Positions 8,216 to 21,652 are shown, counted from the stretch's first letter. The stretch: DNA of 64,000 bases from Candidatus Saccharimonadota bacterium (GCA_034520885.1 JAXHNE010000009.1:2431-66430); one strand, 5' to 3'. Notes: generated by a model not told the origin, from the sequence alone. Program-made: numbers and translations.

Positions 8216-9115
8216 CTAATTGGCGGGTTCTGGTTGCTGCCGTTTAGCTGCGATAGCCAAAGGAACAAGTAATGCCAGAACTGCGAAGTAAGCTAACCTA
8301 TCAATAGTTGCAGCTAAAATAATGTCTTGTGAAGACAAGCCCATTTGGTTCTGTGCTACTAGCAACATTGCTTCTCTGATCCCGATAGCTCCAGGTGTTA
8401 GTGCAACAAGGATTGAAAACTGGGATATACCGGTGTACGTAAGCAGTCCGCCTATCGAGATCTTTGCCCCCACAGCGCTTAGCTCTACACCATATGCTAG
8501 CGTGGAACCGCTTAACTGGAGCAGTGCAATTAAGAACAGACTAATAATAGGTTTTGCTTGAAAAACCACACTAACATTTCTAAGTTTGAGGTATGCGTTT
8601 GCTATGACACGAGGCTTTAATAATCTGAACAAAAATAATGCAAAGGCTAAAGCTCCAACAATTGCTAATATGAACACCAGTACACCAGCGGTACCGCTAA
8701 CTATACCCAAGCCAGATATAATAAGTAGGCCAGCTATTCCAAAAACCATAGCATATTGCATAAAAGTTAGCGCGAAGTATCGCTTGTAAGATATATTGAA
8801 GTACTTTTTCAGGTAAACACCTCTGAAGCCGAGACCACCCTGCAGAAAGCCGAAAAAATTTATCATTGATGAGTAGGCACTAACTCGCACCGCATCTATA
8901 AAAGCTACTTTATTCTTAGTAAAGTTAATGAAAAGAATAAGAAACAGTATATTGGAAAGAAATATCAGTGCCTGCCCAGCCACAACCAGAGATATCTGTG
9001 GTATGGATAAATCTGCAAGTTTTTCAAATTGCTGCTGGTTGTCAAAAAAATAGTAAAAAAAAGCAACCAGAGAGAGAACGAGCAGCAGTATTCGTATTAA
9101 CTTTTTATTTTTCAC
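8216..9115 (-). CDS. flippase-like polytopic membrane protein (LPG-synthase-TM/UPF0104-like)
   Basis: 299 aa with ~8 TM helices. Overlaps the upstream GT2 gene by 11 nt, a common GT2 + flippase-like pairing. Confidence 0.5.
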   Translation of the reverse strand: MKNKKLIRILLLVLSLVAFFYYFFDNQQQFEKLADLSIPQISLVVAGQALIFLSNILFLILFINFTKNKVAFIDAVRVSAYSSMINFFGFLQGGLGFRGVYLKKYFNISYKRYFALTFMQYAMVFGIAGLLIISGLGIVSGTAGVLVFILAIVGALAFALFLFRLLKPRVIANAYLKLRNVSVVFQAKPIISLFLIALLQLSGSTLAYGVELSAVGAKISIGGLLTYTGISQFSILVALTPGAIGIREAMLLVAQNQMGLSSQDIILAATIDRLAYFAVLALLVPLAIAAKRQQPEPAN

Positions 9116-10064
9116 GTTGTGTGTTCTCGAACTGAAGGCGCTTGTTGCGCTCTAAGTTGTTTTCGTTAATGATACGGTTGGTTTTAATCAGATCCGCAAT
9201 GACGCCCAGTACGCAGAACAGTAATCCCGCCGTGAACATGGCGACACCAAGCAGTAGTGATTGAATGTGCTGGCCGGGGTCGGTAGCGCTCACAATCAGG
9301 ATTAAATAGCGTACAAAAGGAATGGCGCTTAAAACCAGCAAAGAAACACCGGGAATGACGAAGACTTTGAGCGGTTCGTGCATAAAGTAACTTTTTAGGA
9401 TGACCCGCATGGATTTATACATGTGCTGGAAGATATTTTTAAACAGGCGTGATTTACGGGTCGGCGGGTTGGTTTTGACCGGTACGGAGGCCAGGGCGAT
9501 ACGGTTCCGCCCGGCATGGATAATGCTTTCCGTGCAGTAGCTGAAGGAGTTTACGATGTTCATTTTGAACGCCGCGTTGCGCGAGTAAGCGCGGAAGCCG
9601 CTGACGGTGTCGGGCACGTTGGTTTTGGCGGCTTTGTTGACTACCCAGCTGCCAAAGCGCTGCATGAGTTTTTTAAACGTGCCGAAATGCTGGATGGCGC
9701 CGGTTTGGCGATCGCCGATGACGATCTCCGCCTCGCCATCAATGACGGGGGTGAGCAATTTAGGGATGTCCGCCTGCGGGTACTGATTGTCGCCATCGGT
9801 GTTGACGATGATGTCCGCGCCGTTGGCTAAGCAGTAGTCCAGGCCGTCCGAAAAGGAGCGGGCCAGGCCACGATTAGTGCGGTGACGTACGAAGTGCTTA
9901 ACCCCGTGTTTTTTGGCGACTTCAACGGTTTTATCGGTGCTGCCGTCGTCGATTATCAGGATTTCTACCGAATCAACGCCCTTGATTTTTTTGGGAATGG
10001 TTTTTAGGACGAGAGGGAGGGTTTCCTCCTCGTTTAGGCACGGAATTTGTACAAACACTTTCAT
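9105..10064 (-). CDS. glycosyltransferase family 2 (polyprenyl-phosphate sugar synthase-like)
   Basis: 319 aa. MKVFVQIPCLNEE..ILIIDDGSTDKT..NTDGDNQY.. (GT-A DxD-type motifs) plus C-terminal TM helices, as in dolichyl/undecaprenyl-phosphate glycosyltransferases. Confidence 0.85.
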   Translation of the reverse strand: MKVFVQIPCLNEEETLPLVLKTIPKKIKGVDSVEILIIDDGSTDKTVEVAKKHGVKHFVRHRTNRGLARSFSDGLDYCLANGADIIVNTDGDNQYPQADIPKLLTPVIDGEAEIVIGDRQTGAIQHFGTFKKLMQRFGSWVVNKAAKTNVPDTVSGFRAYSRNAAFKMNIVNSFSYCTESIIHAGRNRIALASVPVKTNPPTRKSRLFKNIFQHMYKSMRVILKSYFMHEPLKVFVIPGVSLLVLSAIPFVRYLILIVSATDPGQHIQSLLLGVAMFTAGLLFCVLGVIADLIKTNRIINENNLERNKRLQFENTQREK

Positions 10065-10088
10065 AGGCGGGTACCCCTGTGAAAGTCA

Positions 10089-10118
10089 GGAATATGGAAT
10101 ATGGAATATGGAATATGG
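10089..10118. repeat. heptanucleotide tandem array (GGAATAT)4
   Basis: Perfect 4 units at 10089-10116 followed by GG. Lies 25 nt upstream of the GT2 start codon, which is on the minus strand. Confidence 0.95.
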
Positions 10119-10243
10119 GTAAGAACTACCTGCCTAGCTTTGTTTTTTTGTACTGCGCTGCGTCCCGTAGCAGCCTCCGGCTTGCTATCGGGATCCATGT
10201 GCGGAACTCTTGCTTTCATAGGTGGGTACCCCTATGAAAGTCA

Positions 10244-10273
10244 GGAAGATGGAATATGGAATATGGAATATGG
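10244..10273. repeat. heptanucleotide tandem array GGAAGAT(GGAATAT)3
   Basis: Read directly from the sequence. This is the second copy of the duplicated module. Confidence 0.95.
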
Positions 10274-10333
10274 GTAAGAACTACCTGTCTAGCTTTGTTT
10301 TTTTGTGCCGTATTTACGTACATAACTTTATTG

Positions 10334-11680
10334 CTATCTTCCGACTCCGACATAGGTTAAATTATATGCTTCCACGTTTGTTTTATTATAGCAGTTCATG
10401 GCGTCTATGAAGAGATCTCCCTGCATGCGTTTTTTTAATGACGGTAAGTCAATCGTTTTAAGTTCGGGCCAGTCGGTGGTGATGAATACGGCATCGGCGT
10501 TTTCGGTGGCTTTTTCCAGCGAATCACAAATTGCGACTGATTTGCGAAGGTCTTCTTTGGCTTCGCCGTTCGCTCGCGGATCGTACACGCACACCTCCGC
10601 GCCGTCATGATCCAAAATGTTGGCCAGTTTTACGCCTGGAGAGCGCCGCGAGTCGCTGGTTCCCGACTTAAAAGCCAGGCCGAGTACGGCCAATTTTTTG
10701 CCTTGGAGAGTGTCGAGTCGTTCAAGTGCTTTGTTAGCGATGTAGCCGGGCATGGATTCGTTGACGTCGGCCGCGGCGGTCATTATCGGCAAGTCCACGC
10801 CGAATTCCGTCGCGCTGCTGATCAGCCCGCTGACGTCCTTGGGAAAGCACCCGCCACCATAGCCGCGCCCGGCGTTCAAAAACGCCCGGCCAATGCGTGG
10901 ATCGGCGCCGACGGCGTCCATGACTTCCGTGACGTTAGCGCCGGCTTGATCGGCCAGTTTGGCAATGGAATTAGCGAAGGAAATCTTCATCGCCAAAAAA
11001 GCATTGGCGGTAACTTTAATGAGTTCCGCGCTGTTGCGGTTAGTGGCAATGTAGTCCCCGGCTTTTGCCACGAAGGTTATTTTTGCCCGTTTGGCGATCT
11101 CATCCCGCTTGGACTCCAGGGTTTTATACAAGTTTATAACTTCCTCTGCCGCCGGTTTATCCGAACTGCCGGCCACGATGCGGTCAAAACCGAGCGTATC
11201 GGCAATGGCGGTTCCTTCGCGTAAAAATTCCGGGTTGGATACGTAGGATACGTTTTTGCCGGCTCGTTCGAATATCTTTTCCACTGCTTCACCCGTGCCC
11301 ACCGGTACGGTGCTTTTTTGTACGTAAATGGCGCCGTCTTTAATATACTTGGCGGCTTCTTCGGCGGCGGCGTAAACGAAGCTCAAGTTGGAGCTGCCGT
11401 CCGGATTATCCGGCGTGCCGACGCAGGAAAAAATAATATCGCTCCCCGGAATCGCTTGTTCGTAATGGCCAGTGGGGAGCAGTTTTTTGGATTTTATGGC
11501 GTGGGCAATGAGCGGGTCAATGCCGTCCTCGAAAAAGAACGACTTACCGGATTGGATAGTTTTTAAACGACCGGGATTGATTTCTATCAAATGCACGGTG
11601 TGCCCGGCTTCGGCAAAAAGCGTGGCCGTCGTAAGACCGACGTACCCGGCACCAATGACCGAGATGGTTTTAGGCTTCAT
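10334..11680 (-). CDS. ugd: UDP-glucose/GDP-mannose dehydrogenase family protein (probable UDP-glucose 6-dehydrogenase)
   Basis: I trimmed the track ORF to ATG 11680 (MKPKTISVIGAGYVGLTTA = Rossmann motif). Catalytic-Cys motif GGGCFPKDV. ~448 aa. Confidence 0.8.
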   Translation of the reverse strand: MKPKTISVIGAGYVGLTTATLFAEAGHTVHLIEINPGRLKTIQSGKSFFFEDGIDPLIAHAIKSKKLLPTGHYEQAIPGSDIIFSCVGTPDNPDGSSNLSFVYAAAEEAAKYIKDGAIYVQKSTVPVGTGEAVEKIFERAGKNVSYVSNPEFLREGTAIADTLGFDRIVAGSSDKPAAEEVINLYKTLESKRDEIAKRAKITFVAKAGDYIATNRNSAELIKVTANAFLAMKISFANSIAKLADQAGANVTEVMDAVGADPRIGRAFLNAGRGYGGGCFPKDVSGLISSATEFGVDLPIMTAAADVNESMPGYIANKALERLDTLQGKKLAVLGLAFKSGTSDSRRSPGVKLANILDHDGAEVCVYDPRANGEAKEDLRKSVAICDSLEKATENADAVFITTDWPELKTIDLPSLKKRMQGDLFIDAMNCYNKTNVEAYNLTYVGVGR

Positions 11681-11764
11681 CTTTCCCAGTATACAAGGTT
11701 GTTGATTTTGAGTAATGTGCTTTTTACAAGGTAAATATATACAAAACTTTGATACCATTTAGCT

Positions 11765-12811
11765 ATGATTACAGTCATTATTGCCGGGGGATCTGGTACA
11801 CGGCTGTGGCCGCTTTCCACTCCCGACTATCCAAAACACTTATTAAAACTAAATGGTGACGAACGTTCGCTTTTACAAAACACCTATGATCGCGCAAAGC
11901 GTATTAGTGAAAAAATCTACGTTATTACCGAAAAGAGTCACGCTGACCACGTTAAGGAGCAGTTAAGTGAGCTACCCGAAGAGCATTTTATTGTCGAGCC
12001 AGCTCGTAGAGGGACTGCCAGTTGTATCGTTGCCGCCCTGGCGCACGTTAGCAAAAGAGAAGATGAGAACGAAGCCATTGCGGTGCTCTCTGCCGATCAT
12101 TTTATTCGTGACAACGCGGGATTTGCTCAAAGCTTTAAAATAGCGGGTGAAGCATCAGAAAAAGAAGGCCGCATTGTGCTGGTCGGTGTTGAGCCGGACT
12201 ATCCTGCAACCGGGTTCGGGTACATCAAGAAAGATGAGCTGTTTGACGAAGAACGTTTTGTCTACAACGTGGATTCATTTAAAGAGAAGCCGCCTTTTGA
12301 AACAGCGAAAAGGTACCTAAAGAGTGGGGACTATCTCTGGAATTGTGGCTACTTTGTTGGGTCGCTTGCAACGTTTAAAGAAAAAATGAAGCTTCGCTCC
12401 CCAGAGTTACTCGAAAATTATCAAAAGTTACTTAATGCGAAGAGTGACGATGAGTATCACGAAACGTACCTTGGCTTTAAGAACGACACTATAGATTACG
12501 GATTGATTGAGCACGTGCAGGATTTGTTGGTGGTACCCGCAGCGTTCGACTGGATGGATCTCGGATCCTTTAACGACCTACATAAGGCTGTGGTGAGTGA
12601 CGAGCAATCGAATTACATAAGCGGACAGAAAGTCGAGCTTGAAGGGGTTGACAATGCTTACGTGCATAACGCCGAAGAAAAACCAGTAGCAGTCATTGGG
12701 CTAGATAACATTGCGGTCGTTAATACGAAGGACGGTCTTTTGATTGCTCGAAAAGACCTTGCACAAAAGGTGGGGGAAGTAAGTAAACGAATTAATGGGA
12801 AAGGTAAATAG
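11765..12811 (+). CDS. manC: mannose-1-phosphate guanylyltransferase (nucleotidyltransferase domain)
   Basis: 348 aa. MITVIIAGGSGTRLWPLS signature. Divergent from ugd and first gene of a GDP-mannose module. Confidence 0.8.
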   Translation: MITVIIAGGSGTRLWPLSTPDYPKHLLKLNGDERSLLQNTYDRAKRISEKIYVITEKSHADHVKEQLSELPEEHFIVEPARRGTASCIVAALAHVSKREDENEAIAVLSADHFIRDNAGFAQSFKIAGEASEKEGRIVLVGVEPDYPATGFGYIKKDELFDEERFVYNVDSFKEKPPFETAKRYLKSGDYLWNCGYFVGSLATFKEKMKLRSPELLENYQKLLNAKSDDEYHETYLGFKNDTIDYGLIEHVQDLLVVPAAFDWMDLGSFNDLHKAVVSDEQSNYISGQKVELEGVDNAYVHNAEEKPVAVIGLDNIAVVNTKDGLLIARKDLAQKVGEVSKRINGKGK

Positions 12812-13578
12812 TGAGGAAAGTAATAACTTTTGACCTCGACGATACGTTGGCGGTCACCAAATCGCCAATCACCGATAAGATGGCTCGCTTGCTGGAAGAA
12901 TTATTAGAACACCACCAGGTGTGTATTATTTCCGGTGGTCGGTTCGAGCAATTCCAAAAACAGGTTATTGATAACTTAAAAATCGAACACCACTTTTTGC
13001 TTAATTTACATATTATGCCAACTTGTGGGACGCGCTACTATCGATTTAACGATATTGATCAAGAATGGAAGCTCCTTTATGCGGAAGATATACCTCAAAA
13101 AGATAAACAGCGAATAATTGATGCGCTGACACGTGCCGCGAAAGAAACTGGTTTTTTGGAAAAAAATCCCCATGGAGAAATCGTTGAAGACAGGGGAAGT
13201 CAAATCACATTTTCCGCCTGTGGTCAGCAAGCCCCGCCGGAGGTAAAATACAAATGGGATCCCGATACTAAAAAAAGACAAAAAATTCGAGAAAAAGTGA
13301 TTCATGAAATCGATGATTACGAAATCAGGATTGGTGGAACGACGTCCATCGACGTTACCAAACCGGGCATTGACAAGGCTTACGGCATGGAAAAGCTTAT
13401 GAGTGTCCTGGAGATCGGCAAAGACGACATATTATTTATTGGCGACAAGCTCGAAGAAGGCGGAAATGACTATCCGGTAAAAGCAATGGGTATTGATACG
13501 ATCGCCGTCGAGGGGTGGGAGGATGCCGCACTTGTCATTGAAACCATCAATAAATTGGCTCGTAACTCCGATGAATAA
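12811..13578 (+). CDS. HAD-IIB phosphatase/phosphomannomutase-like protein
   Basis: 255 aa with a GTG start overlapping the manC stop (TAGTG). HAD motif I FDLDDTLA and later GDKLEEGGNDYP (motif IV). Resembles eukaryotic-type PMM. Confidence 0.7.
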   Translation: MRKVITFDLDDTLAVTKSPITDKMARLLEELLEHHQVCIISGGRFEQFQKQVIDNLKIEHHFLLNLHIMPTCGTRYYRFNDIDQEWKLLYAEDIPQKDKQRIIDALTRAAKETGFLEKNPHGEIVEDRGSQITFSACGQQAPPEVKYKWDPDTKKRQKIREKVIHEIDDYEIRIGGTTSIDVTKPGIDKAYGMEKLMSVLEIGKDDILFIGDKLEEGGNDYPVKAMGIDTIAVEGWEDAALVIETINKLARNSDE

Positions 13579-14074
13579 ACAAGAAAAATTAAAACAAGTA
13601 AAGCAAGATTTAATTCTGCCCAAGCAGTACACATTGGCAGATGTTGATGAGCATAAACCTTGGGGCGCGTACTATCGTCTGGCCGATGAACATGCGGAAG
13701 CATTCGTGGGAGAATACTTTCCGAAACGCTCAGTCGAAGAGCTTGGACGTGGAGGCAGTTTAAGCCCCAAATTTTTGGTTTTTGAGCCCGGCAAAAAGTT
13801 GAGCCTACAATATCATGTGTATAGAGCAGAGATATGGCGAGTCATATCGGGTACTTTGACCGCGACCGTTTCTGAATCGGACGAAGAAGGGGAATGGCAA
13901 AATTATACTGAAGGTGAAGAGTTGTCTTACGGTGCCTTGATGAGGCATCGTGCAGGTGCACCAAGCGATGGTGATTGGTGTATTGTTGCAGAAATTTGGC
14001 AACATACGGATGCAGATAACCCTACAAGCGAAGAAGATATTATTCGTCTAAAAGATGATTTTGGGCGCGCATAA
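13571..14074 (+). CDS. cupin-domain protein (type II phosphomannose isomerase C-terminal-like)
   Basis: I trimmed the track ORF to ATG 13571, which overlaps the upstream stop. Contains ..DEHKPWGAYYRLA.., a cupin core (LSLQYHVYRAEIWRV) and ..RHRAGAP... Confidence 0.6.
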   Translation: MNKQEKLKQVKQDLILPKQYTLADVDEHKPWGAYYRLADEHAEAFVGEYFPKRSVEELGRGGSLSPKFLVFEPGKKLSLQYHVYRAEIWRVISGTLTATVSESDEEGEWQNYTEGEELSYGALMRHRAGAPSDGDWCIVAEIWQHTDADNPTSEEDIIRLKDDFGRA

Positions 14075-14079
14075 TTTAA

Positions 14080-14589
14080 ATGAAAAAGACGGAAGAAAAT
14101 GAGCTGGTGGATCTCCTCAAAAGACTAAACCCTGGCTTTTTGCCCTACCCAATATTTGAACAAATTGCACGACTTACGGCCCTGTCGATTATTGAATTCG
14201 TCCCACTGCGCATAAATAAAAGCCAAAATATAGAGGTGTTGCTTTTGGACAGAGAAGGAGATGATCCCATCTGGCCGAATAAAGTGCATACTCCTGGTAC
14301 CGTTATCCGACCAGGCGATAATGAGGGCAATCAATACGTTGCTTTTGAACGAATAGTCAAAGACGAACTAAAAGATACTAAAATATCAGAGCCGCACTTT
14401 GTGGGCAGTCTATTGCATAAAAGCAAGCGTGGGACTGAGCATGCCCAAATTTACTGGGTAGAGGTTTTGGGAGAGCCAAAAAATGGAAGTTTTTTCGAAG
14501 CGAATAAATTACCAGAAACACTCATCTCCTCACAAAGAAAATTTATTAACCAAGCTGTCAAGTCCTTCCGTGACAACCGTCGACTCTGA
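14080..14589 (+). CDS. Nudix-fold-like protein (degenerate Nudix box)
   Basis: 169 aa. The ..VLLLDREGDDPIWPNKVHTPGTVIRPGD...AFERIVKDELKD.. layout resembles the Nudix fold, but the canonical GX5EX7REUXEEXGU box is not intact. Confidence 0.35.
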   Translation: MKKTEENELVDLLKRLNPGFLPYPIFEQIARLTALSIIEFVPLRINKSQNIEVLLLDREGDDPIWPNKVHTPGTVIRPGDNEGNQYVAFERIVKDELKDTKISEPHFVGSLLHKSKRGTEHAQIYWVEVLGEPKNGSFFEANKLPETLISSQRKFINQAVKSFRDNRRL

Positions 14590-14620
14590 TGCCTAAACTT
14601 ACATGCTAGTATAGGAATAT

Positions 14621-15514
14621 ATGCAGAAACGTATTATTAAAAAGGCGGTGATCGCCGCTGCAGGATTCGGGACGCGGTTTTTGCCGCAAACCAAGGCCAT
14701 GCCCAAGGAAATGCTGCCACTGGTGGACACGCCGATTATCCAATACATTGTGGAGGAGCTGGTGGGCTCCGGTGTGGAAGATATCGTGATTGTCACGGGA
14801 TACCACAAACGTTCCATTGAAGACCATTTTGATCATATGAGTACTGATCTTCGGCAAAATCTAAAACAGGGCGGCAAGCTTGAATTGCTTGAAGAAACAA
14901 AAAAGATTAGTGAGCTAGCTAACTTTGCCTACGTACGCCAGAAAGGCCCGTACGGCAACGCCACGCCACTGATGTGCGCCGAACACTTGCTGGGTGACGA
15001 ACCGTTTTATTACGCCTTTGCCGACGATTTCGTAAAAGCCGATCCCAGCCGGTTCAAACAACTTTTGGAGGTGCACTGGGAACACGGCGGCACGGTGCTA
15101 ACCTGCGTACGGGCGCAAAATGAGCAAGATTACAAACGCTACGGCTTCGTTGCCGGTGAGGAAGTTACTCCAAGCTTGATGCAAGCTAAAAACATCATCG
15201 AAAAACCCGGATCGCGCGAAAAGGCGGGATCTGACTTTGCCACGGTAAGCGGGTACATTATTGATCCGGCGATCTTTCCGTACTTGCACGAGAAAAAGAA
15301 GCACCTAAAAGAAGGTGAAGAGTTCATCATGCAAACCGCCATGCAAGACATGATTGAAGAAGGCCATAAGATCTTCGGTTGCGAAGTGCAAAATGGTACG
15401 TTTTACGATGCGGGTAATAAACTGGATTACATGAAAACCATCGTGGATTTCGCGCTCGCCCGCGAAGATATCGGCGAAGATTTTAAAAACTATCTTAAAG
15501 CCAAGCTACAGTAA
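14621..15514 (+). CDS. galU: UTP--glucose-1-phosphate uridylyltransferase
   Basis: 297 aa. AVIAAAGFGTRFLPQTKAMPKEMLPLVDTPIIQY signature. Confidence 0.9.
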   Translation: MQKRIIKKAVIAAAGFGTRFLPQTKAMPKEMLPLVDTPIIQYIVEELVGSGVEDIVIVTGYHKRSIEDHFDHMSTDLRQNLKQGGKLELLEETKKISELANFAYVRQKGPYGNATPLMCAEHLLGDEPFYYAFADDFVKADPSRFKQLLEVHWEHGGTVLTCVRAQNEQDYKRYGFVAGEEVTPSLMQAKNIIEKPGSREKAGSDFATVSGYIIDPAIFPYLHEKKKHLKEGEEFIMQTAMQDMIEEGHKIFGCEVQNGTFYDAGNKLDYMKTIVDFALAREDIGEDFKNYLKAKLQ

Positions 15515-15535
15515 AACGAACATTGCTGACCAAGC

Positions 15536-16891
15536 CTACAAGCAGCTTTGAACTTTGCGAATAAGTTGATCGAGTTCTTTTTTGGTCTTTGCCTCGGCGT
15601 TCAGGCGCATGACCGGTTCAGTGTTACTGGCGCGAAGATTAAACCACGTGGATTTATCGATCCACACAGTGAGGCCGTCTAATTCGTCGAAATCCGCGTC
15701 CTCGAAGATTTGTTTTAGTTTCGCAAAAACCTTCGTTTTATCAACATTGGTTTTAATATTTATTTCCTGAGGCATTTCGTAGCGCCTGTATTCATCAACG
15801 AGCTCAGAAAGTTTTTTGCCACTATCAGTGAGTGCTTGCATAGCAACAAGCGCAGTAATCAGCCCGGAATCGGCGTCATAGTTTTCCGTGAAAAACATGT
15901 GTCCCGTGGTTTCGCCACCAAACGGAGCACCGACTTTGCGCATGAGAGAGCCTATATTAACACGACCCGCCTTGGTGCGTACCGGTTCGCCGCCCCACTC
16001 CCTAATGAGTTCTTGTGTCGCTTTGCTAGTGCGTACGTCGTGCACGATCTTTGCGCCCGGATATTTTTGCAAATACCGCTTAGCGATAATCGACATTAAA
16101 TCAGTGCCCAAAACAGGCCGACCTTGATCGTCGACAAAAACCGCACGATCTCCGTCGCCGTCAAACGCAATACCGAAATCCAACTGGTTTTTAGTTATTT
16201 CACCAGTAAGGTCTCGTAAGTTTTCTACCTTTTGCGGGTTGGCTTCGTGATTCGGGAAGCTACCGTCAAGTTCAAAGTACATATTTTTCGAACGGATTGG
16301 CAGTTTCGATAAAATAGCGGGAAGGATTTCTCCGGCCATACCATTTCCGGCGTCAATAGCGACGTTGAAACCACTCAATTCGTCAATAAAACCAAGGCAA
16401 TGATCAACCCACTCTTCTGTAATTGACTTATGGGAAACAGAGCCTTGCTCTTTCGTGTCTTGAGGAACTTCATTGGCTATAAATTTGTCTCGAATTTCTG
16501 ACAATCCGGCATCCAGGCCAATGGCAATGACTTGATCACGGTATAGTTTAATTCCGTTATCTTTGCCGGGGTTATGACTGGCAGTAATAACCGCACCGCC
16601 GGCTAGATTCCATTTGCCGACGGCGAAGTAGATCATATCACTGGTTACCAAGCCGATATCCCACACATCGTAACCCTGCGATATAAGTCCGCTAATAAAT
16701 GATTGTGCCAAATCTTTTGAGTCGGCACGCATGTCATGCCCAACGGCCACTATACCTTTTTCAGGGAGCCAGTTCGCATAGCAACGGGCAATTTTTTCGA
16801 CGGTATCAGTCGTTAGTTGATCGCCGACTGTGCCACGGATATCGTATGATTTAAAAATTTCCGAAATGTCTTGCATGGTTCCATTGTACAC
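15536..16891 (-). CDS. phosphoglucomutase/phosphomannomutase (alpha-D-phosphohexomutase)
   Basis: 451 aa. Active-site loop TASHNPGKDNGIK and metal loop FDGDGDR. Confidence 0.9.
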   Translation of the reverse strand: MYNGTMQDISEIFKSYDIRGTVGDQLTTDTVEKIARCYANWLPEKGIVAVGHDMRADSKDLAQSFISGLISQGYDVWDIGLVTSDMIYFAVGKWNLAGGAVITASHNPGKDNGIKLYRDQVIAIGLDAGLSEIRDKFIANEVPQDTKEQGSVSHKSITEEWVDHCLGFIDELSGFNVAIDAGNGMAGEILPAILSKLPIRSKNMYFELDGSFPNHEANPQKVENLRDLTGEITKNQLDFGIAFDGDGDRAVFVDDQGRPVLGTDLMSIIAKRYLQKYPGAKIVHDVRTSKATQELIREWGGEPVRTKAGRVNIGSLMRKVGAPFGGETTGHMFFTENYDADSGLITALVAMQALTDSGKKLSELVDEYRRYEMPQEINIKTNVDKTKVFAKLKQIFEDADFDELDGLTVWIDKSTWFNLRASNTEPVMRLNAEAKTKKELDQLIRKVQSCL

Positions 16892-16900
16892 AAATCGGGT

Positions 16901-17908
16901 TTAAAGCGTTTTTTGCCAGCGCCAGGCGTCCGCCAGGGCATCATGAAGCGATTTTTCCGACTTCCAGCCCAGTAATTTTTTGGCCTTTTCGGAGCCGGCG
17001 TAGGTGGCGACGATGTCTCCTTCCCGCGGCGGCCCGATTTTGTAAGGAAGTTTTTTGCCGGTAGCTTGCCGGAAGGCCGTGATGACCTCCAGTACGCTGC
17101 TGCCTTTACCGGTGCCGATATTGCACGTTTCGTAAGTGGAACCTTTTTGGCCGTTGGCCCACTTAAGGGCGGCTACGTGGGCTTTGGCCAGGTCGACCAC
17201 ATGGATGTAGTCGCGTATACAGGTGCCGTCCGGGGTCGGGTAGGTGTCTCCGTGTACCGTAAGTTCCGGCCGTATGCCGGCCGCGGTTTGGGTAATGAAC
17301 GGGATTAGGTTCGCCGGCGTGCCAATCGGCAGCTCCCCGATAAGGGCACTGGGGTGGGCGCCAATGGGATTAAAGTATCGCAGGGCGATGGACGTGAGAC
17401 GTTTGCTGGCTTTGGTGGTGTCTTGAAGGATGGTTTCATCCATTTGTTTGGTGGCGCCGTATGGCGAGGTGGCGGGTTTGGTTGGCGCCTCTTCGGTGAC
17501 GGGCAGATCGTCCGGTTCGCCGTAAACCGTGCAGGAGGAAGAAAACACGAAGTTTTTTACGGAGGCTTCTTCCACGGCTTTAAGCAGGGTGATAAGCCCC
17601 GCGACGTTATTTTGGTAATAGTCCAGAGGTTTTTGCACTGATTCGCCGACCGCTTTATGCGCGGCGAAGTGAATAACTCCTTCTACCGCGTGATCTTTCA
17701 GGAGCTTTCTTAAAAACGACTCATCTTGGTAGTCGTTTTCATAGGAGGTAATATCTGAACCGGTAATTTCATTTAAGCGGTCAATGACCTGCCGATCGGA
17801 GTTTGAAAAGTTATCTACGATTATTGGCCGGTAGCCGGCGTTGACCAGTTCCACGACCGTATGCGAACCAATGAACCCGGCGCCTCCGGTAACCAAGATG
17901 TTCTTCAT
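16901..17908 (-). CDS. galE: UDP-glucose 4-epimerase
   Basis: 335 aa. VTGGAGFIGSH NAD motif and YGATK catalytic motif (SPYGATKQM). Confidence 0.9.
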   Translation of the reverse strand: MKNILVTGGAGFIGSHTVVELVNAGYRPIIVDNFSNSDRQVIDRLNEITGSDITSYENDYQDESFLRKLLKDHAVEGVIHFAAHKAVGESVQKPLDYYQNNVAGLITLLKAVEEASVKNFVFSSSCTVYGEPDDLPVTEEAPTKPATSPYGATKQMDETILQDTTKASKRLTSIALRYFNPIGAHPSALIGELPIGTPANLIPFITQTAAGIRPELTVHGDTYPTPDGTCIRDYIHVVDLAKAHVAALKWANGQKGSTYETCNIGTGKGSSVLEVITAFRQATGKKLPYKIGPPREGDIVATYAGSEKAKKLLGWKSEKSLHDALADAWRWQKTL

Positions 17909-19092
17909 TTTTTGCCCTTTGAACCAATTCGTTTTAGGTGGGCTTTTATGGCTTGGCGGAAATGTTTTTGGTCAAATTGCCGGGCGGTTTTGGATATGGC
18001 GCCCGGGTCAAAGGAGTGGTCGGGAAATTGTCGCAATACCCGTACGAGCGAGTCGACGGTTTGTTCCTTGAAAAACGTACCGGTTTTGCCCTCGATCACG
18101 TAATCCAGGGCGCCGCCGGCTTGGTAGGCGATTACCGGGGTGCCGGAGGCCATGGCTTCTACCGGCGCGATCCCGAAATCTTCCAGGCTGGCGAAAATAA
18201 AGGCTTTGGCGGACGCCAGAGATTCTTCAATTTCTTGGTTGGTGGCGTTGTCGTTAAAGGTGATCGTATCGCCGGCAATGCGTTTTAAGTTGCCCAGTTC
18301 CGGGCCGTAGCCAATGACGGTGAGGGGGAGTTTTAACTGATTACAGGCTTGGATGATGAGGTCGGTGCGTTTGTTGGGGACGAGACGCCCCACAGTCACG
18401 AAGCCACGCTTCTTGGAAGATGGAATATGGAAGGTGGAATTTGAGAAGCGGGAGGTGTCTACCGGGGGGTGGATGACGGTTGAGTCGCGACCGTAGTATT
18501 TTTTGATGTCACTTTGAATGTGCGTGGAGTTGGCGATAAAATAATCAACCTTTTGCGCCGCTTGGTAGTCACGTTCGCGCAATGGTTTTACCAGTAACTT
18601 GAGCCCGATCCGGACGAGCCATTTCGGCCGAAAGCCGGGATTTTTAAGGTAGTTGTCGTAGTGCCGCCAGTAGAAGTGGACCGGGGAATGGCAATAACAT
18701 ACATGCAACGGGCGTTGCATGTTGGAAGATGGAAGTTGGAAGTTGGAAGATGGCGAAACGAATTTGGCTTCTCCGTTACCGCTGGAGCTGATTATCAGAT
18801 CGTAGTCACTTAAATCCAGCTTTTTGAACCAACGTTGCCGGAGTAATGGTAAAAACTTCCGAAGCCGGGAGAACGGCCACTTTTGCAAGTATCCGGTTAC
18901 TACTTTGCCATCTAATTTATCGCGCCACTCATCACTGCAGTAAGAGGTGTAAATCGGCGCTTCCGGAAACATTTTATGGAGTTCCAAAACAACCTGTTCA
19001 GCACCGCCTCCCAAAAGCCAATCGTGGGCTATCGCAACCTTCAGGTTGCGCGTGGAAGGTGGAAGGTGGAAGGTGGAAGGTGGTTGTTTCAT
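17905..19092 (-). CDS. glycosyltransferase family 4 carrying three in-frame heptamer-array insertions
   Basis: 395 aa. Core ..KVAIAHDWLLGGGAEQV.., ..LHVCYCHSP.. and ..EDFGIAPVEAMASGTPVIA... Repeat-encoded segments are MKQPPSTFHLPPSTRN (N-terminus), SPSSNFQLPSSNMQ and NSTFHIPSSKK. The start overlaps the stop of the upstream gene (ATGA). Confidence 0.85.
   Translation of the reverse strand: MKQPPSTFHLPPSTRNLKVAIAHDWLLGGGAEQVVLELHKMFPEAPIYTSYCSDEWRDKLDGKVVTGYLQKWPFSRLRKFLPLLRQRWFKKLDLSDYDLIISSSGNGEAKFVSPSSNFQLPSSNMQRPLHVCYCHSPVHFYWRHYDNYLKNPGFRPKWLVRIGLKLLVKPLRERDYQAAQKVDYFIANSTHIQSDIKKYYGRDSTVIHPPVDTSRFSNSTFHIPSSKKRGFVTVGRLVPNKRTDLIIQACNQLKLPLTVIGYGPELGNLKRIAGDTITFNDNATNQEIEESLASAKAFIFASLEDFGIAPVEAMASGTPVIAYQAGGALDYVIEGKTGTFFKEQTVDSLVRVLRQFPDHSFDPGAISKTARQFDQKHFRQAIKAHLKRIGSKGKK
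18400..18448. repeat. hairpin (GAAGC-CAC-GCTTC) + degenerate heptamer array TGGAAGA TGGAATA TGGAAGG TGGAATT TGAGAAG
   Basis: Read directly from the sequence. Lies inside the GT4 CDS, in frame. Confidence 0.8.
18703..18753. repeat. hairpin (ATGCAACG-GG-CGTTGCAT) + heptamer array TGGAAGA TGGAAGT TGGAAGT TGGAAGA TGG
   Basis: Read directly from the sequence. Lies inside the GT4 CDS, in frame. Confidence 0.9.
19033..19083. repeat. hairpin (CGCAACCT-TC-AGGTTGCG) + perfect heptamer array (TGGAAGG)4 TGG
   Basis: Read directly from the sequence. The array occupies codons 4-13 of the GT4 gene, starting 9 nt after its ATG. Confidence 0.95.
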
Positions 19093-19448
19093 CGAAGTGG
19101 TCTCATGAATGCGTTTAGTAATTTTTGAACCGAAACACTTTCTTTAAGCAACTCACTCAATTCATCATCGTTGACGTAGTCAAGCCTATTAGCTAAATAC
19201 AAAAAGTTCTTTGTCTCAAGTGCTGAGCCGTACGCTATGACGAAAAAGTGTAGCTTGTCTTTCTTTGTTTGCCTTCCGAAGCCCTCCGAAATATTCGCGG
19301 AGATTGATGAAACTGAACGCCTGATCTGTGAAGTTAACCCGAAACGCTCCTCAGAAGGAAATTTTTTCGTTACTCTATAGACGCTTACGGCCCAATCCTG
19401 CGCTTTTCGCCAAACTTCAAGATCTTCGAATGATTCAATTCGTGCCAT
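19089..19448 (-). CDS. four-helix-bundle protein (23S rRNA intervening-sequence protein / Avd family)
   Basis: 119 aa. MARIESFEDLEVWRKAQDWAV...QIRRSVSSISANISEGFGR...ALETKNFLYLA matches the family known as PF05635/TIGR02436. Confidence 0.85.
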   Translation of the reverse strand: MARIESFEDLEVWRKAQDWAVSVYRVTKKFPSEERFGLTSQIRRSVSSISANISEGFGRQTKKDKLHFFVIAYGSALETKNFLYLANRLDYVNDDELSELLKESVSVQKLLNAFMRPLR

Positions 19449-19491
19449 ATTCCACCTTCCATATTCTACCCTCCGTGATGCTTCGCATCAC
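19447..19491. repeat. inverted-orientation heptamer array + hairpin (GTGATGC-TTC-GCATCAC)
   Basis: On the minus strand this reads GTGATGC GAA GCATCAC GGAGGGT AGAATAT GGAAGGT GGAATAT G. It contains the RBS-like GGAGG/AAGGTGG and the ATG of the four-helix-bundle gene. The outer hairpin arm contains the TGA stop of the upstream sugar transferase. Confidence 0.85.
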
Positions 19492-20912
19492 TTGGCTCCG
19501 GTTCCGAGGAGCACCACCCGGATGGTGCGCAGGAGGATGCTGATATCCAGTACGAAGCTCCAGTTTTGTACGTAGTAGACGTCCAGGCGACGGCGTTCTT
19601 CGAAGCTGATGTCCTCCCGACCGGAAATTTGCGCCAAACCGGTAATGCCGGCTTTTACGCTTAAAATGGCGTGTTTTCGTTTGTAAGTGTTAAGCTCCGC
19701 CGGTATGAGGGTGCGCGGCCCGACGAGGCTGAGATCGCCCAGGATAACGTTAAATAACTGGGGGAGTTCGTCCAGGCTGGTGCGGCGCAAGAAACGCCCG
19801 ACTTTACTGATGCGCGGGTCTTTGGCGAGCACGTAACCGTTGTTTTTGTAAGTTTCGTACAGCTTGGGTTTGCCGAGTTTTTTAAAGGCGGCTTTATCGG
19901 AGAGGCCGCTAATGTCCGCGCGGTGCGTTCGGAATTTAAATACTTTGAATTCACGATTAAAGCGCGTCAGGCGAACTTGGCGGAAGAACACCGGTCCGCG
20001 CGGGTCGCTGATTTTTAGAACGACGGCGATCACGGCAATTACCGGTGAAAGCACGATAAGAGCTAACGAAGTAAAGAAAAGATCGAACAGGCGTTTGGCG
20101 ATGCGCCCCCAGCCGATGAGCTTGGTTTGGTGCACGGCGATCATGGGCAGGCCGGCGAATAAATCCACCTCGATATTGCCCACGAACAAGTTGCTGTTGC
20201 CGGGCATGAACCGATAGGACACGTGGTTTTCTTGGGCGAAGCGCACGATCTCGTTGTTTTTTAGGTCGTCCTTATACAGTTCGGTATGAATAATTCCGTG
20301 CGGGTGGGAGGGCAGTTTTTTGATGGCATCCTCGAAACTGGCGAAGTATTTAAACCGCGGGCTTTTTTTGCCAACGATACCCATGACGCGAATACCGCTG
20401 GTTTTGGTATCCGAAATGATGCGGGCCAGGTCGATGCTGGCGTCCGTGTTGCCGATGATCAGTACGTCACTAATGCCGACCTTAAAGCGGAATAATAGAC
20501 GGCGCAGTATTCGCGTCGCGGTGCGAAACAGCAGCAAAAGGCCAAAACTTAAACCGAAGCCGTAGACGGGCACCAAACGGGCGGGAAACAACTCTCCGCC
20601 GATTACGAAATCGTAGCCGATGACCACCAAAATGCCAATGAACGCCCCGGTAATGAGCCGGCCGAGTTCCACGAAGCGTTTTTCGTAAATGTCTTTTCGG
20701 TATAAGCCGATAGCGGCGTGCACCAGCAGCCAAAACGGCAGTACGGCCAGGAAGGTATACAGGAATTCCAAGGCGGTTATTTGCTCGATAAGCGGTAGTT
20801 CGTCCTGGACTTTTACGCGGATGGTGTAAGCCACGCTGAAGGCGGCGGTGAGGGCGAGAGCGTCGCCGATAACTAAAATCAGTGAGTAGAAAACCGAGGC
20901 ATTATTGCGCAT
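19488..20912 (-). CDS. polyprenyl-phosphate hexose-1-phosphate transferase (WbaP/WcaJ-type priming sugar transferase)
   Basis: 474 aa. N-terminal TM helices plus the C-terminal bacterial sugar transferase domain (..RIAKRLFDLFFTSLALIVLSPV..DELPQLFNVILGDLSLVGPR..). RBS GAGGAGG lies upstream. Confidence 0.9.
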   Translation of the reverse strand: MRNNASVFYSLILVIGDALALTAAFSVAYTIRVKVQDELPLIEQITALEFLYTFLAVLPFWLLVHAAIGLYRKDIYEKRFVELGRLITGAFIGILVVIGYDFVIGGELFPARLVPVYGFGLSFGLLLLFRTATRILRRLLFRFKVGISDVLIIGNTDASIDLARIISDTKTSGIRVMGIVGKKSPRFKYFASFEDAIKKLPSHPHGIIHTELYKDDLKNNEIVRFAQENHVSYRFMPGNSNLFVGNIEVDLFAGLPMIAVHQTKLIGWGRIAKRLFDLFFTSLALIVLSPVIAVIAVVLKISDPRGPVFFRQVRLTRFNREFKVFKFRTHRADISGLSDKAAFKKLGKPKLYETYKNNGYVLAKDPRISKVGRFLRRTSLDELPQLFNVILGDLSLVGPRTLIPAELNTYKRKHAILSVKAGITGLAQISGREDISFEERRRLDVYYVQNWSFVLDISILLRTIRVVLLGTGAK

Positions 20913-21199
20913 GATACCTCCTCAGCAAGTCTTCCTGCCTGCACGCAAAGCGCGCAGCGCTGAAGGCTTTCTTGGCGCATATCACAATTTTTGACTGTGA
21001 GACTTCCCTCAACGTATCGTACATACGTCTCGGTTCGTTTCTCGTCAATAAATTGTAATATGCATCCAAGTGAGAAGCTATCATCATATGGTAGGTATTG
21101 TAGCACCGGTAAGCGATAGCTGGTATACTGGCTAGCAGTAAACAAAATACGAAAACCGCCGAAGAAGAAACAGGAAAAAAGCAAAACCAAACAAGAAAT

Positions 21200-21652
21200 A
21201 TGAAACTCAAGATCAAAAAGAAACAAAAACGGGGAATCAAGCGCTTTGGCGGGTACATGGTCGGCGGTGGCGCCCAGTTTTGGAGCGGCTACGCGGCTTT
21301 CGCCCTGTTCGACGCGGTGTTCGGCATTAATTTTTGGTGGGCCAAATCCCTGGCATACTTTATCGGCGTGTCCGTGAATTACGGGCTGGAGCGGTTTTGG
21401 GTGTTCAAGGTCAAAAACATTACCCGCAAACAAATTGAAACCAGCGCCGGTAAGTTTTACACGCTCATGTTCGTTAACTTCTTGCTGGACCTAGGTATCG
21501 TCGGCGGATTGCGGCAACTGGGGCTTACCCCGTACTTGGGCCAGTTCGTGAGTAGCGGCTTCTTTACGGTATGGAACTGGGTTTTGTTTAATTTGTGGGT
21601 GTTTTCCAAAAAACGCGTGCCTCGTAAAAAGAAAAAGCGACGTAAAAAATGA
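21200..21652 (+). CDS. GtrA-family membrane protein with Lys/Arg-rich tail
   Basis: 150 aa with 4 TM helices (GGAQFWSGYAAFALF.., ..NYGLERFWVF..) typical of GtrA-like proteins. C-terminus is VPRKKKKRRKK. Confidence 0.7.
   Translation: MKLKIKKKQKRGIKRFGGYMVGGGAQFWSGYAAFALFDAVFGINFWWAKSLAYFIGVSVNYGLERFWVFKVKNITRKQIETSAGKFYTLMFVNFLLDLGIVGGLRQLGLTPYLGQFVSSGFFTVWNWVLFNLWVFSKKRVPRKKKKRRKK

Follow-up and report, generated by a model that had tools for sequence, protein, structure and literature searches.

We analyzed a stretch of 64,000 nt from a Candidatus Saccharimonadota bacterium (GCA_034520885.1 JAXHNE010000009.1:2431-66430; hereafter the window, with positions counted from its first letter), in which a gene for a 119-aa four-helix-bundle protein is inserted into a polysaccharide operon on the minus strand. 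The operon comprises five genes, encoding a priming sugar transferase, the 119-aa open reading frame (ORF), a GT4 glycosyltransferase, a NAD-dependent epimerase/dehydratase-family protein (GalE-like) and a phosphogluco/mannomutase. The small gene is bracketed by two inverted arrays of tandem heptamers, designated R (upstream) and B (downstream). The features of this junction are, in the direction of transcription:

19488-20912, minus strand: priming sugar transferase, upstream host gene, 474 aa (ORF list; Pfam Bac_transf, E 6.4e-59)
19475-19491, minus strand: hairpin 1, GTGATGC-gaa-GCATCAC (sequence; predicted in the minimum free energy, MFE, structure)
19445-19474, minus strand: upstream array R, GGAGGGT AGAATAT GGAAGGT GGAATAT GG (sequence, repeat search)
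19089-19448, minus strand: 119-aa four-helix-bundle gene, PF05635 / TIGR02436 (Pfam E 2.1e-38, TIGR02436 E 7.7e-36)
19089-19092, minus strand: ATGA, the stop of the 119-aa gene overlapping the GT4 start (sequence, ORF list)
19052-19083, minus strand: downstream array B, (CCACCTT)x4.6, complementary to R (TRF, period 7, 100% matches)
19033-19050, minus strand: hairpin 2, CGCAACC-tgaa-GGTTGCG (fold prediction, sequence)
17905-19092, minus strand: GT4 glycosyltransferase, downstream host gene, 395 aa including an N-terminal extension (Glycos_transf_1 E 5e-25, Glyco_transf_4 E 1e-12)

The stop codon of the transferase (TGA at 19490-19488) is located within the 5' arm of hairpin 1 (7 bp), which is directly adjoined by array R. 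Similar hairpins at a stop codon were present in L002, L006 and L086 (labels of this type designate homologous loci retrieved in our searches). Within array R lie the Shine-Dalgarno-like sequence GGAGG/AAGGTGG and, in the final unit, the ATG of the 119-aa gene. The ATGA overlap at the other end is predicted to couple translation of the 119-aa gene to that of GT4. Array B begins 5 nt past the ORF stop, is preceded by ATGAAACAA, and its translation (PPSTFHLPPST) falls within a 17-aa extension at the N-terminus of GT4. In hairpin 2 (7 bp), the 3' arm corresponds to the conserved GT4 codons K-V-A and the 5' arm is a reverse-complement copy derived from the insert (GT4 was aligned with 32 homologs). 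No minus-strand promoter or terminator site was detected at the cassette borders by the promoter/terminator scan, and hairpin 1 lacks a T-run. An initial annotation of this DNA had described most of this anatomy, and its description was borne out: the ORF list and Pfam place the gene between the priming transferase and GT4, its ATG is embedded at the end of the first array (19474-19445), its stop overlaps the GT4 ATG (19092-19089), a CCACCTT array of opposite orientation follows (x4.6 by TRF, 19083-19052), and the mutually complementary segments UGGAAGGUGGAA and UUCCACCUUCCA are both found in the arrays.

The 119-aa protein matched PF05635 with 131.2 bits (cut-off 33.8), which was its only Pfam match, and TIGR02436 with 122.6 bits (cut-off 24). 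Its closest solved homolog is the pentameric XCC0516 (PDB 2gsc, E 3.5e-17), and the closest solved homologs (2gsc, 2rld) are five-chain assemblies; a PF05635 pentamer is also stated in PMC4990558. Thirty-three columns are invariant among 8 junction homologs. An exact-sequence look-up of the protein returned no record, and no second PF05635 copy was found within the window. Avd, a protein of diversity-generating retroelements (DGRs), is likewise a pentameric four-helix bundle, and its sequence is distantly similar to that of the 119-aa protein (PHROG 'Avd protein of DGR', E 1e-6). An identity as DGR/Avd was nevertheless rejected, the NCBIfam Avd equivalog scoring 21 bits against a cut-off of 80 and the neighbours being a sugar transferase and a GT4, with no reverse transcriptase. 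The ORFs scanned from 8.2 to 22.1 kb were sugar-pathway, GtrA-like, LexA-like and lysyl-PG-synthase-like genes. An anti-phage defence system was discarded with no PADLOC family at E <= 0.01. An insertion sequence or miniature inverted-repeat transposable element was discarded as well: there is no transposase domain, and the insert borders inspected in the window and in the junction loci show inverted flank copies instead of a direct duplication.

When the minus strand of 19030-19495 (466 nt) was folded with RNAfold, an energy of -143.3 kcal/mol was obtained (z -4.72), and 0 of 100 shuffles were as good. The MFE structure includes a helix between R and B of 7+3+12+3 = 25 pairs, in which the terminal inverted repeats enclose the ORF as in the intervening sequences (IVSs) of rRNA, and the stable long-range pairing suggested by the initial annotation is therefore predicted. 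The isolated R:B duplex reached -40 to -45 kcal/mol (-40.3 when R was compared with all arrays of the window), compared to -17.9 ± 4.7 for random 48-nt windows of the same transcript. In a longer fold of 1.18 kb, an array inside the GT4 gene (array D, 18414-18442, described below) became the MFE partner of R, and ensemble pairing of R amounted to 14.8 nt with D and 10.2 nt with B. With either partner array, the ensemble pairing probability was ~1.0 at positions -12 to -3 before the ORF AUG. The proposal that the stem buries both start regions thus holds for the Shine-Dalgarno sequence and AUG of the ORF, which are paired with a probability near 1, and only partially for the GT4 start.

To place the insert among relatives, the transferase was used to scan one genome per species, which gave 80 Saccharimonadales/Saccharibacteria loci (the best 80% identical), and both host genes could be placed in 78 of them. 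In most relatives (55/78), GT4 lies 0-80 nt from the transferase stop, in several cases with an ATGA or GTGA overlap, and starts with M-K-(V/I)-A-I, which is the insert-free arrangement that the initial annotation had proposed to look for. A homolog of the window protein (48-61% identity) sits exactly at the junction in 7/78 loci, and a second, divergent PF05635 subfamily in 4/78; the latter was assigned by Pfam for two loci (E 1e-18 to 1e-20) and by tblastn for the other two, and in one of the four, L008, extra genes also lie between the host genes (gap 4439 nt). Inverted period-7 arrays bracket the PF05635 gene in all 11 junction loci and in the window, and a junction gene devoid of arrays, which would have contradicted the initial annotation, was not seen. 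The heptamer itself varies by genome (GGAAGGT in the window, ATAGATG, GGTAGAT, GTAGTTC and GGACGTT elsewhere, CATTTnn in the second subfamily). Cognate array pairs are complementary all the same and average -26.2 kcal/mol, non-cognate ones -14.4. Two loci hold decayed versions: L056 is a remnant of 192 nt with both arrays kept, and L017 carries a Phd/YefM antitoxin and PIN toxin module with the downstream array alone, of the heptamer type of the second cassette.

The downstream gene has been re-coupled through the insert. GT4 is read in frame through the downstream array from an NTGA overlap (ATGA/GTGA/TTGA) in the window and in L001, L024, L038 and L052, with an extension of 16-17 codons in these five loci, and the ancestral Met codon is lost. 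Among metagenome loci of the same context (L081-L088), the overlaps are 4-23 nt. In a neighbour-joining tree of the transferase, the insert is scattered over at least 5 separate clades, each with insert-free sisters, and the identity of the inserted protein does not track that of the host. On these two grounds, we conclude that the cassette has been precisely and repeatedly gained or lost as a unit; such a patchy distribution could be produced by homologous exchange in the flanking genes alone.

An alignment of the junction proteins retrieved a further 80 metagenome loci (34-70% identity), of which 76 had both flanks. A flank duplex (70 nt before the start versus after the stop) of -37 kcal/mol or lower was found in 42/76 loci, compared to 17/108 other genes on the same contigs (p 5e-7). 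Arrays with a lag of 7 were present in 75/152 flanks, while lags of 5, 6, 8, 9 and 10 gave 0, 18, 9, 2 and 2, and control windows 3/111. The copy number had a median of 4.3 (interquartile range 3-4.7) on both sides, and the downstream array started at a median of 5 nt after the stop. The loci with arrays on two sides were inverted in 24 cases, direct in 3 and unclear in 2. Same-strand ORFs lay on both sides in 36 of the 57 loci for which both neighbours were found. The unit of gene and inverted heptamer arrays recurs at many other operon junctions in several phyla, and it was not found described as such in the literature searchable here. That the arrays are neutral slippage-prone simple sequence repeats (SSRs), complementary by chance, and the gene an ordinary operon member, is extremely improbable. 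Heptamer SSRs are indeed reported to be over-represented across bacteria (PMC4692102). However, the window has 17 occurrences of GGAANNTGGAANNT where 0.17 would be expected, cognate complementarity is observed in dozens of independent loci of differing sequence, and the gene is absent from most orthologous operons, so that repeat counts, synteny, cognate pairing and lag-7 statistics already contradict this explanation.

Taken together, these results are best accounted for, with a probability of about 0.6, by a discrete IVS-type cassette of ~440 nt in an mRNA, in which a PF05635 ORF is enclosed by an inverted-heptamer helix at a former transferase/GT4 stop/start overlap. In relatives, the insert occurs or is missing as a whole, its arrays are complementary in each junction cassette with a sequence that differs by genome, and the downstream gene is re-coupled by an NTGA overlap and N-terminally extended through the array. 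The comparison of relatives supports the IVS-like element in an mRNA put forward in the initial annotation. In the polycistronic RNA, R and B would pair into a helix of ~25-30 bp, which would mask the start codon and Shine-Dalgarno sequence of the inserted gene. By analogy, this would be the kind of duplex at which the rRNA version is cut by RNase III. Unless the helix is held open by ribosomes that arrive from the upstream gene or are engaged on the ORF, the cassette would then form a cleavable loop that is not translated. Array B starts ~5 nt after the stop, inside the footprint of a terminating ribosome, and for that reason translation of the ORF would be expected to keep the helix open. 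Because GT4 starts inside the cassette, its expression would require ribosomes to pass through the inserted gene. The tandem repeats would also make the helix tolerant to slippage, since any register still pairs. Two other mechanisms were tried and rejected. Mimicry of the anti-Shine-Dalgarno sequence (CCACCUU resembling the 16S 3' end) fits the heptamer of the window and not the other heptamer types, and therefore fails as a general explanation. The ancestral start codon of GT4 is lost (CTG here) and the hairpin loops contain none, which is incompatible with ribosome hopping or with re-initiation at that site.

IVSs of rRNA with a PF05635 ('S23p') ORF are known in Coxiella burnetii, with reports for Leptospira and Brucella too. 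In the 23S IVS of Coxiella, a Shine-Dalgarno-like sequence is followed by (GACAGAT)x3 + GACAGAA and then by the ATG of the PF05635 ORF; the element has a 28-bp terminal stem and is cut in vitro by RNase III at the start of the first repeat, and strains differ by one heptamer repeat (PMC4990558). The window cassette shares with rRNA IVSs the protein family, an ORF of ~120 aa, a stem of ~25-30 bp formed by terminal inverted repeats and a patchy distribution (PMC4990558), and with the Coxiella IVS the tandem heptamers directly before the ORF start, four units ending at the ATG here. The analogy is closer than the initial annotation knew, because the Coxiella IVS combines heptamers before the PF05635 start with a 28-bp stem and RNase III cleavage. 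Unlike the rRNA elements, the cassette has an mRNA as host and lies between two protein-coding genes, at a junction of coupled genes and not in 23S helix 25 or 45; Rfam gave nothing at the cassette and no rRNA match in 9000-21500 or around 12 homologous loci. Its downstream array is moreover translated into the next protein. RNase III excision is a feature of the rRNA IVSs; the helix of the window is predicted to be substrate-like, and a cut would cost GT4 its start codon. Within the full-text literature searchable here, a link between PF05635 genes and flanking heptamer arrays was not found outside the Coxiella IVS.

Several observations weigh against the mRNA cassette as formulated above. 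The window contains no RNase III gene, and the presence of this enzyme was assumed. Cleavage of the helix by RNase III would sever the GT4 start codon, which is upstream of array B, from the rest of GT4, and would therefore silence GT4 rather than be neutral. Selection at the RNA level did not reach significance in a strand comparison, with 41 wobble-compatible mismatches in sense versus 25 in antisense (p 0.064) and a better sense duplex in 25/42 strong loci (p 0.051). Direct-orientation period-7 arrays stand on both sides of the gene in Pseudanabaena, Gemmatirosa, L092/93 and L113, and 31/76 metagenome loci have an array on one side only; a stem is therefore not a universal requirement. Finally, a stem explains neither the period of 7 nor the solo arrays in GT4 and before GT2. 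Because of the strand-test p values, the direct-repeat exceptions, the one-sided arrays, the period of 7 and the solo arrays, protein binding and a DNA-level repeat system are considered as live rivals, with phase variation of GT4 as a possible side effect.

The conservation of the period bears on the first of these. The arrays could be binding sites for the PF05635 pentamer, with 4-5 tandem heptamers of single-stranded RNA (or DNA) contacted one per subunit, in a TRAP-like manner on triplet repeats; the protein would autoregulate its own translation and control the array-bearing GT4 and GT2 genes, the inverted copy serving as a competitor or anti-site. We regard this as possible but doubtful. 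A period of 7 is kept across unrelated sequences, the copy number is tight in a family whose closest solved homologs are five-chain, and arrays persist where the flanks are direct and not inverted. Start codons are overlapped or closely preceded by arrays here, in XCC0516 and in Coxiella (PMC4692102, PMC4990558); the XCC0516 gene follows accB at a distance of 6 nt, and its start codon is covered by four units of a GGGAATC-type array (PMC4692102 supplement). The six arrays of the window are also of one heptamer type, in one gene cluster and on one strand. On the other hand, nucleic-acid binding by the PF05635 family was not found in the literature searchable here, the inverted orientation of 24/29 two-sided loci is not required by a pure binding-site model, common descent would equally lead related proteins to have similar heptamer types, and the agreement of array copies with ring subunits is, so far, numerology.

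Beyond R and B, the repeat search revealed four more arrays of the R/B heptamer type in the window, all in CCANNTT orientation on the minus-strand mRNA:

18714-18753, minus strand: array C, CCATCTT CCAACTT CCAACTT CCATCTT CCAAC, inside GT4, encoding PSSNFQLPSSN
18414-18442, minus strand: array D, AAATTCC ACCTTCC ATATTCC ATCTTCC, in a variable stretch at about the middle of the GT4 protein, encoding STFHIPSS
10244-10273, minus strand: array E, CCATATT type, in the first copy of a ~157-bp tandem duplication (R:E duplex -42.2 kcal/mol)
10089-10118, minus strand: array F, (CCATATT)x4.3, 25 nt upstream of the GT2 start

The two-array picture of the initial annotation was thus correct as to the presence of both arrays, but arrays are not unique to the 119-aa gene and R has alternative pairing partners. 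Array R is the only purine-rich copy and can pair with any of the five others at -36 to -42 kcal/mol. Array C continues into the hairpin ACATGCAACG-cc-CGTTGCATGT (18701-18722) and is an in-frame insertion at a variable GT4 loop, where inserted peptides also occur in L002, L013, L052 and L020; among those relatives, a nucleotide array was detected at this site for L020 only. Array D, likewise inserted in frame at a variable site, is the unit-by-unit reverse complement of R (duplex -42.3 kcal/mol), and many relatives have arrays at its site in GT4. Array E is followed by a hairpin containing an ATG, and array F by the hairpin ACTTTCAcAGG..CCTaTGAAAGT (10057-10086), which holds the ATG of GT2 (assigned by Pfam, E 1e-22). 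The region of E and F (10057-10353) is a ~157-bp tandem duplication between the UDP-glucose dehydrogenase and GT2 genes, each copy with (CCATATT)x4, a hairpin and an ATGAAAG start. Small minus-strand ORFs of 45 aa (10216-10353) and 52 aa (10061-10219) run through these arrays; their stops overlap the starts that follow (ATGA), which for the 52-aa ORF is the start of GT2. The Pfam scan of the latter ORF gave no match.

Each array of the window adjoins a short hairpin whose outer arm is host sequence (transferase stop, GT4 K-V-A, GT4 P-L-H-V-C, GT4 G-F, GT2 ATG) and whose inner arm is an inverted copy of the outer. In the junction loci, the equivalents of hairpin 2 have 6-13 bp and covary with the host codons in several relatives, and the mean hairpin energy in cassette loci is -11.3 kcal/mol, compared to -7.5 in 55 insert-free loci (p 4e-4). 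An array-abutting hairpin of host sequence was rejected as a general rule, since it holds in the window and in the Saccharibacteria junction loci and fails in the metagenome set. These hairpins may have been left as a footprint of insertion, or may be under selection as part of a three-way junction where the helix begins.

Dispersed arrays raise the question of a two-component repeat system acting at the DNA level. In REPIN-RAYT systems, the RAYT is an HUH/Y1 transposase and the REPs are palindromes. These systems resemble the cassette in that a single-copy gene stands between inverted copies of a short repeat, further copies of which are scattered through the genome and in part form pairs without an ORF; unlike in them, the protein is a PF05635 four-helix bundle and not an HUH/Y1 transposase (only PF05635 was matched in Pfam), and the repeats are tandem heptamers instead of palindromes. 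On such a model, the gene with its inverted arrays would be autonomous, and solo arrays and ORF-less pairs would be non-autonomous and propagated by the protein or a partner enzyme. This appears unlikely, in spite of a number of consistent observations. The contigs bearing the gene hold additional arrays with its type of heptamer, among them inverted pairs devoid of an ORF in L098 (2077-2170) and L119 (3033-3132), and array density away from the gene was 59/333 kb, compared to 26/1.4 Mb in all fetched Saccharibacteria loci, with thresholds that differ between the two counts. The window itself has five more R-type arrays, D repeats the unit order of R in reverse complement, the mismatches show no significant strand bias, and the adjoining hairpins with their inverted host copies could be read as an insertion footprint. 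Xanthomonas, with 186 arrays and 70 inverted pairs, has a PF05635 gene with such an array (PMC4692102). Against these points, GT4 arrays persist where the junction has no PF05635 gene (L009, L012, L020), no target-site duplication was found at the insert borders inspected, the adjacent hairpins do not generalise beyond Saccharibacteria loci, and homologous recombination through flanking conserved genes can also give a patchy distribution. To our knowledge, a four-helix bundle has no nuclease or transposase chemistry.

The arms of the ORF-less pairs of L098 and L119 are 35-40 nt apart and 1.5 kb from the gene. The heptamer of the L098 pair is identical to that flanking the PF05635 gene of the contig, and that of L119 is closely similar; these pairs resemble non-autonomous derivatives. 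A second array type, CCATATT/GGAAGAT (that of the window), was seen in L083 (5850-5883) and L086 (1933-1962 and 4081-4112), whose PF05635 genes are flanked by CTACCAC and ATCAAAT, respectively, which suggests more than one heptamer family per genome.

Heptamers dispersed in bacterial genomes have previously been treated as G-quadruplex or regulatory motifs, namely GGGAATC in Xanthomonas, GGGGA(C/T)T and the short tandemly repeated repetitive sequences (STRR) of Nostoc/Calothrix, and TAACTGA (PMC4692102, PMC4679880). The TAACTGA arrays of Beggiatoaceae stand before start codons and were described without a protein partner (PMC4679880), and no mention of PF05635 was found in the passages searched of PMC4692102 and PMC4679880. 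These arrays resemble ours in having a genome-specific unit of ~4 copies, an intergenic location in operons and, often, an end at a start codon. They differ, as described in those passages, from the window in which the arrays form two arms bracketing a PF05635 gene.

The number of units can change between close relatives. Near-identical loci differ by exactly one 7-nt unit in an array, and two plasmid paralogs of Nostoc punctiforme have 5 and 7 TCAGGAG-type units (L092/L093, in the downstream flank, and L162/L169); such differences indicate that heptamer arrays slip. The arrays might accordingly be contingency tracts, in which slippage by one unit in (CCACCTT)x4.6 or in the internal tracts shifts the GT4 frame as an on/off switch, an explanation that we consider quite unlikely. 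Array B is a perfect tract in the 5' coding region, with a unit length indivisible by 3, as in an SSR contingency locus, and the target is a surface-polysaccharide glycosyltransferase. One-unit differences are seen in L092/L093 and among Coxiella strains (PMC4990558), and the Nostoc punctiforme paralogs differ in unit number as well. Haemophilus influenzae hmw, in which heptamer SSR phase variation is combined with an RNase III-targeted element in the 5' untranslated region (UTR), illustrates that such coupling exists (PMC12721329). A tract length affecting expression and an RNase III-sensitive RNA structure are features of hmw; it has, however, a single promoter/5'-UTR tract, in contrast to the paired inverted arrays around an inserted gene found here. 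Most arrays of the relatives are imperfect, the extension is 16-17 codons with a constant frame in the window, L001, L024, L038 and L052, and phase variation leaves the matching inverted array, the inserted gene and the untranslated arrays unexplained.

The same organization was recovered in named genomes of cyanobacteria, Bacteroidota and alphaproteobacteria, the records being annotated plasmids (L161, L163 and L168 are NZ_CP016476.1, NC_019429.1 and NZ_CP112875.1):

Picosynechococcus: gene between cmr2 and cmr3, inverted GGAGATA arrays
Anabaena sp. 90: gene between cas6 and cas4, inverted arrays
Azospirillum: inverted GACAGAG / GACGGAT arrays
Riemerella: inverted AAGGTTY arrays
Nostoc punctiforme: (TCAGGAG)x5-7 before the ATG
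Pseudanabaena: gene between cas6 and cas4, (GCTAAAA)x13 and (GCCAAAA)x10 in direct orientation

An earlier study had interpreted PF05635 genes at the cmr3/cmr2 position as Cas-associated (PMC3936711). Since they have the same flanking heptamer arrays (L161, L163, L168), our comparison suggests that four-helix-bundle genes in CRISPR-Cas operons are inserts and not Cas accessory genes. More generally, PF05635 genes found in operons should be annotated with caution, as inserts and not as functional partners of their neighbours.

We tentatively propose, as a possibility that goes beyond the cassette itself, that PF05635 pentamers and period-7 arrays are two halves of one widespread system, present in at least six phyla, in which the protein recognises or propagates the heptamers. 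The bracketed gene would be the complete unit, colonising transcribed sites that tolerate structure (rRNA helices, operon stop/start junctions and cas operons), and the solo arrays and ORF-less pairs of the genome-specific heptamer would be derivatives or a regulon. If true, rRNA IVSs, operon-wedged four-helix-bundle genes and the excess of bacterial heptamers (STRR, GGGAATC, TAACTGA) would have a common explanation. The ORFs of rRNA IVSs, the four helix bundle/S23 genes wedged into cas, acc and polysaccharide operons, and the heptamer arrays were each orphan descriptions, and the window locus with its relatives unites the three in a fixed architecture of array, ORF and inverted array. The arrays can also add translated peptides to host proteins, as at the GT4 N-terminus and in two internal GT4 loops.

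A second PF05635 gene of the L006 genome (20180-20790) lies just upstream of a probable rmlA and is an exception, being flanked by direct ~11-nt TCTGC-containing repeats and not by inverted heptamers. The junction of the transferase and GT4 genes accommodates other inserts. A non-coding insert of ~170-185 nt, devoid of heptamer arrays, occupies the transferase/GT4 junction in L020 (11425-11608), L044 (11443-11616), L039 (11431-11612) and L048 (11428-11612). The L020 and L044 inserts have a common block, …GAGCCGTATAG.TAATACGGC.AA.GAGCGACAGACGCCAGCTGAC…, and the ~180-nt insert of L020 had no match in Rfam; it may be an undescribed structured RNA. The Phd/YefM and PIN module is present at the same junction in L017 (11416-12151; Pfam E 4e-9 and 3e-12 for the L017 pair) and L029 (11431-12126), with an operator-like palindrome, TTGACA…TTAGCTAA(G/C)TTAGCTAA. 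This junction is a general insertion hot spot in Saccharibacteria, which takes toxin-antitoxin modules and the ~180-nt non-coding element in addition to the PF05635 cassettes. It also has the appearance of a recombination boundary, with a conserved part of the polysaccharide locus on one side and a variable part on the other: the transferase of the window is 80% identical to those of L001/L002, the adjacent GT4 is merely 59-62% identical, and the GT4 of the more distant L011 reaches 65%.

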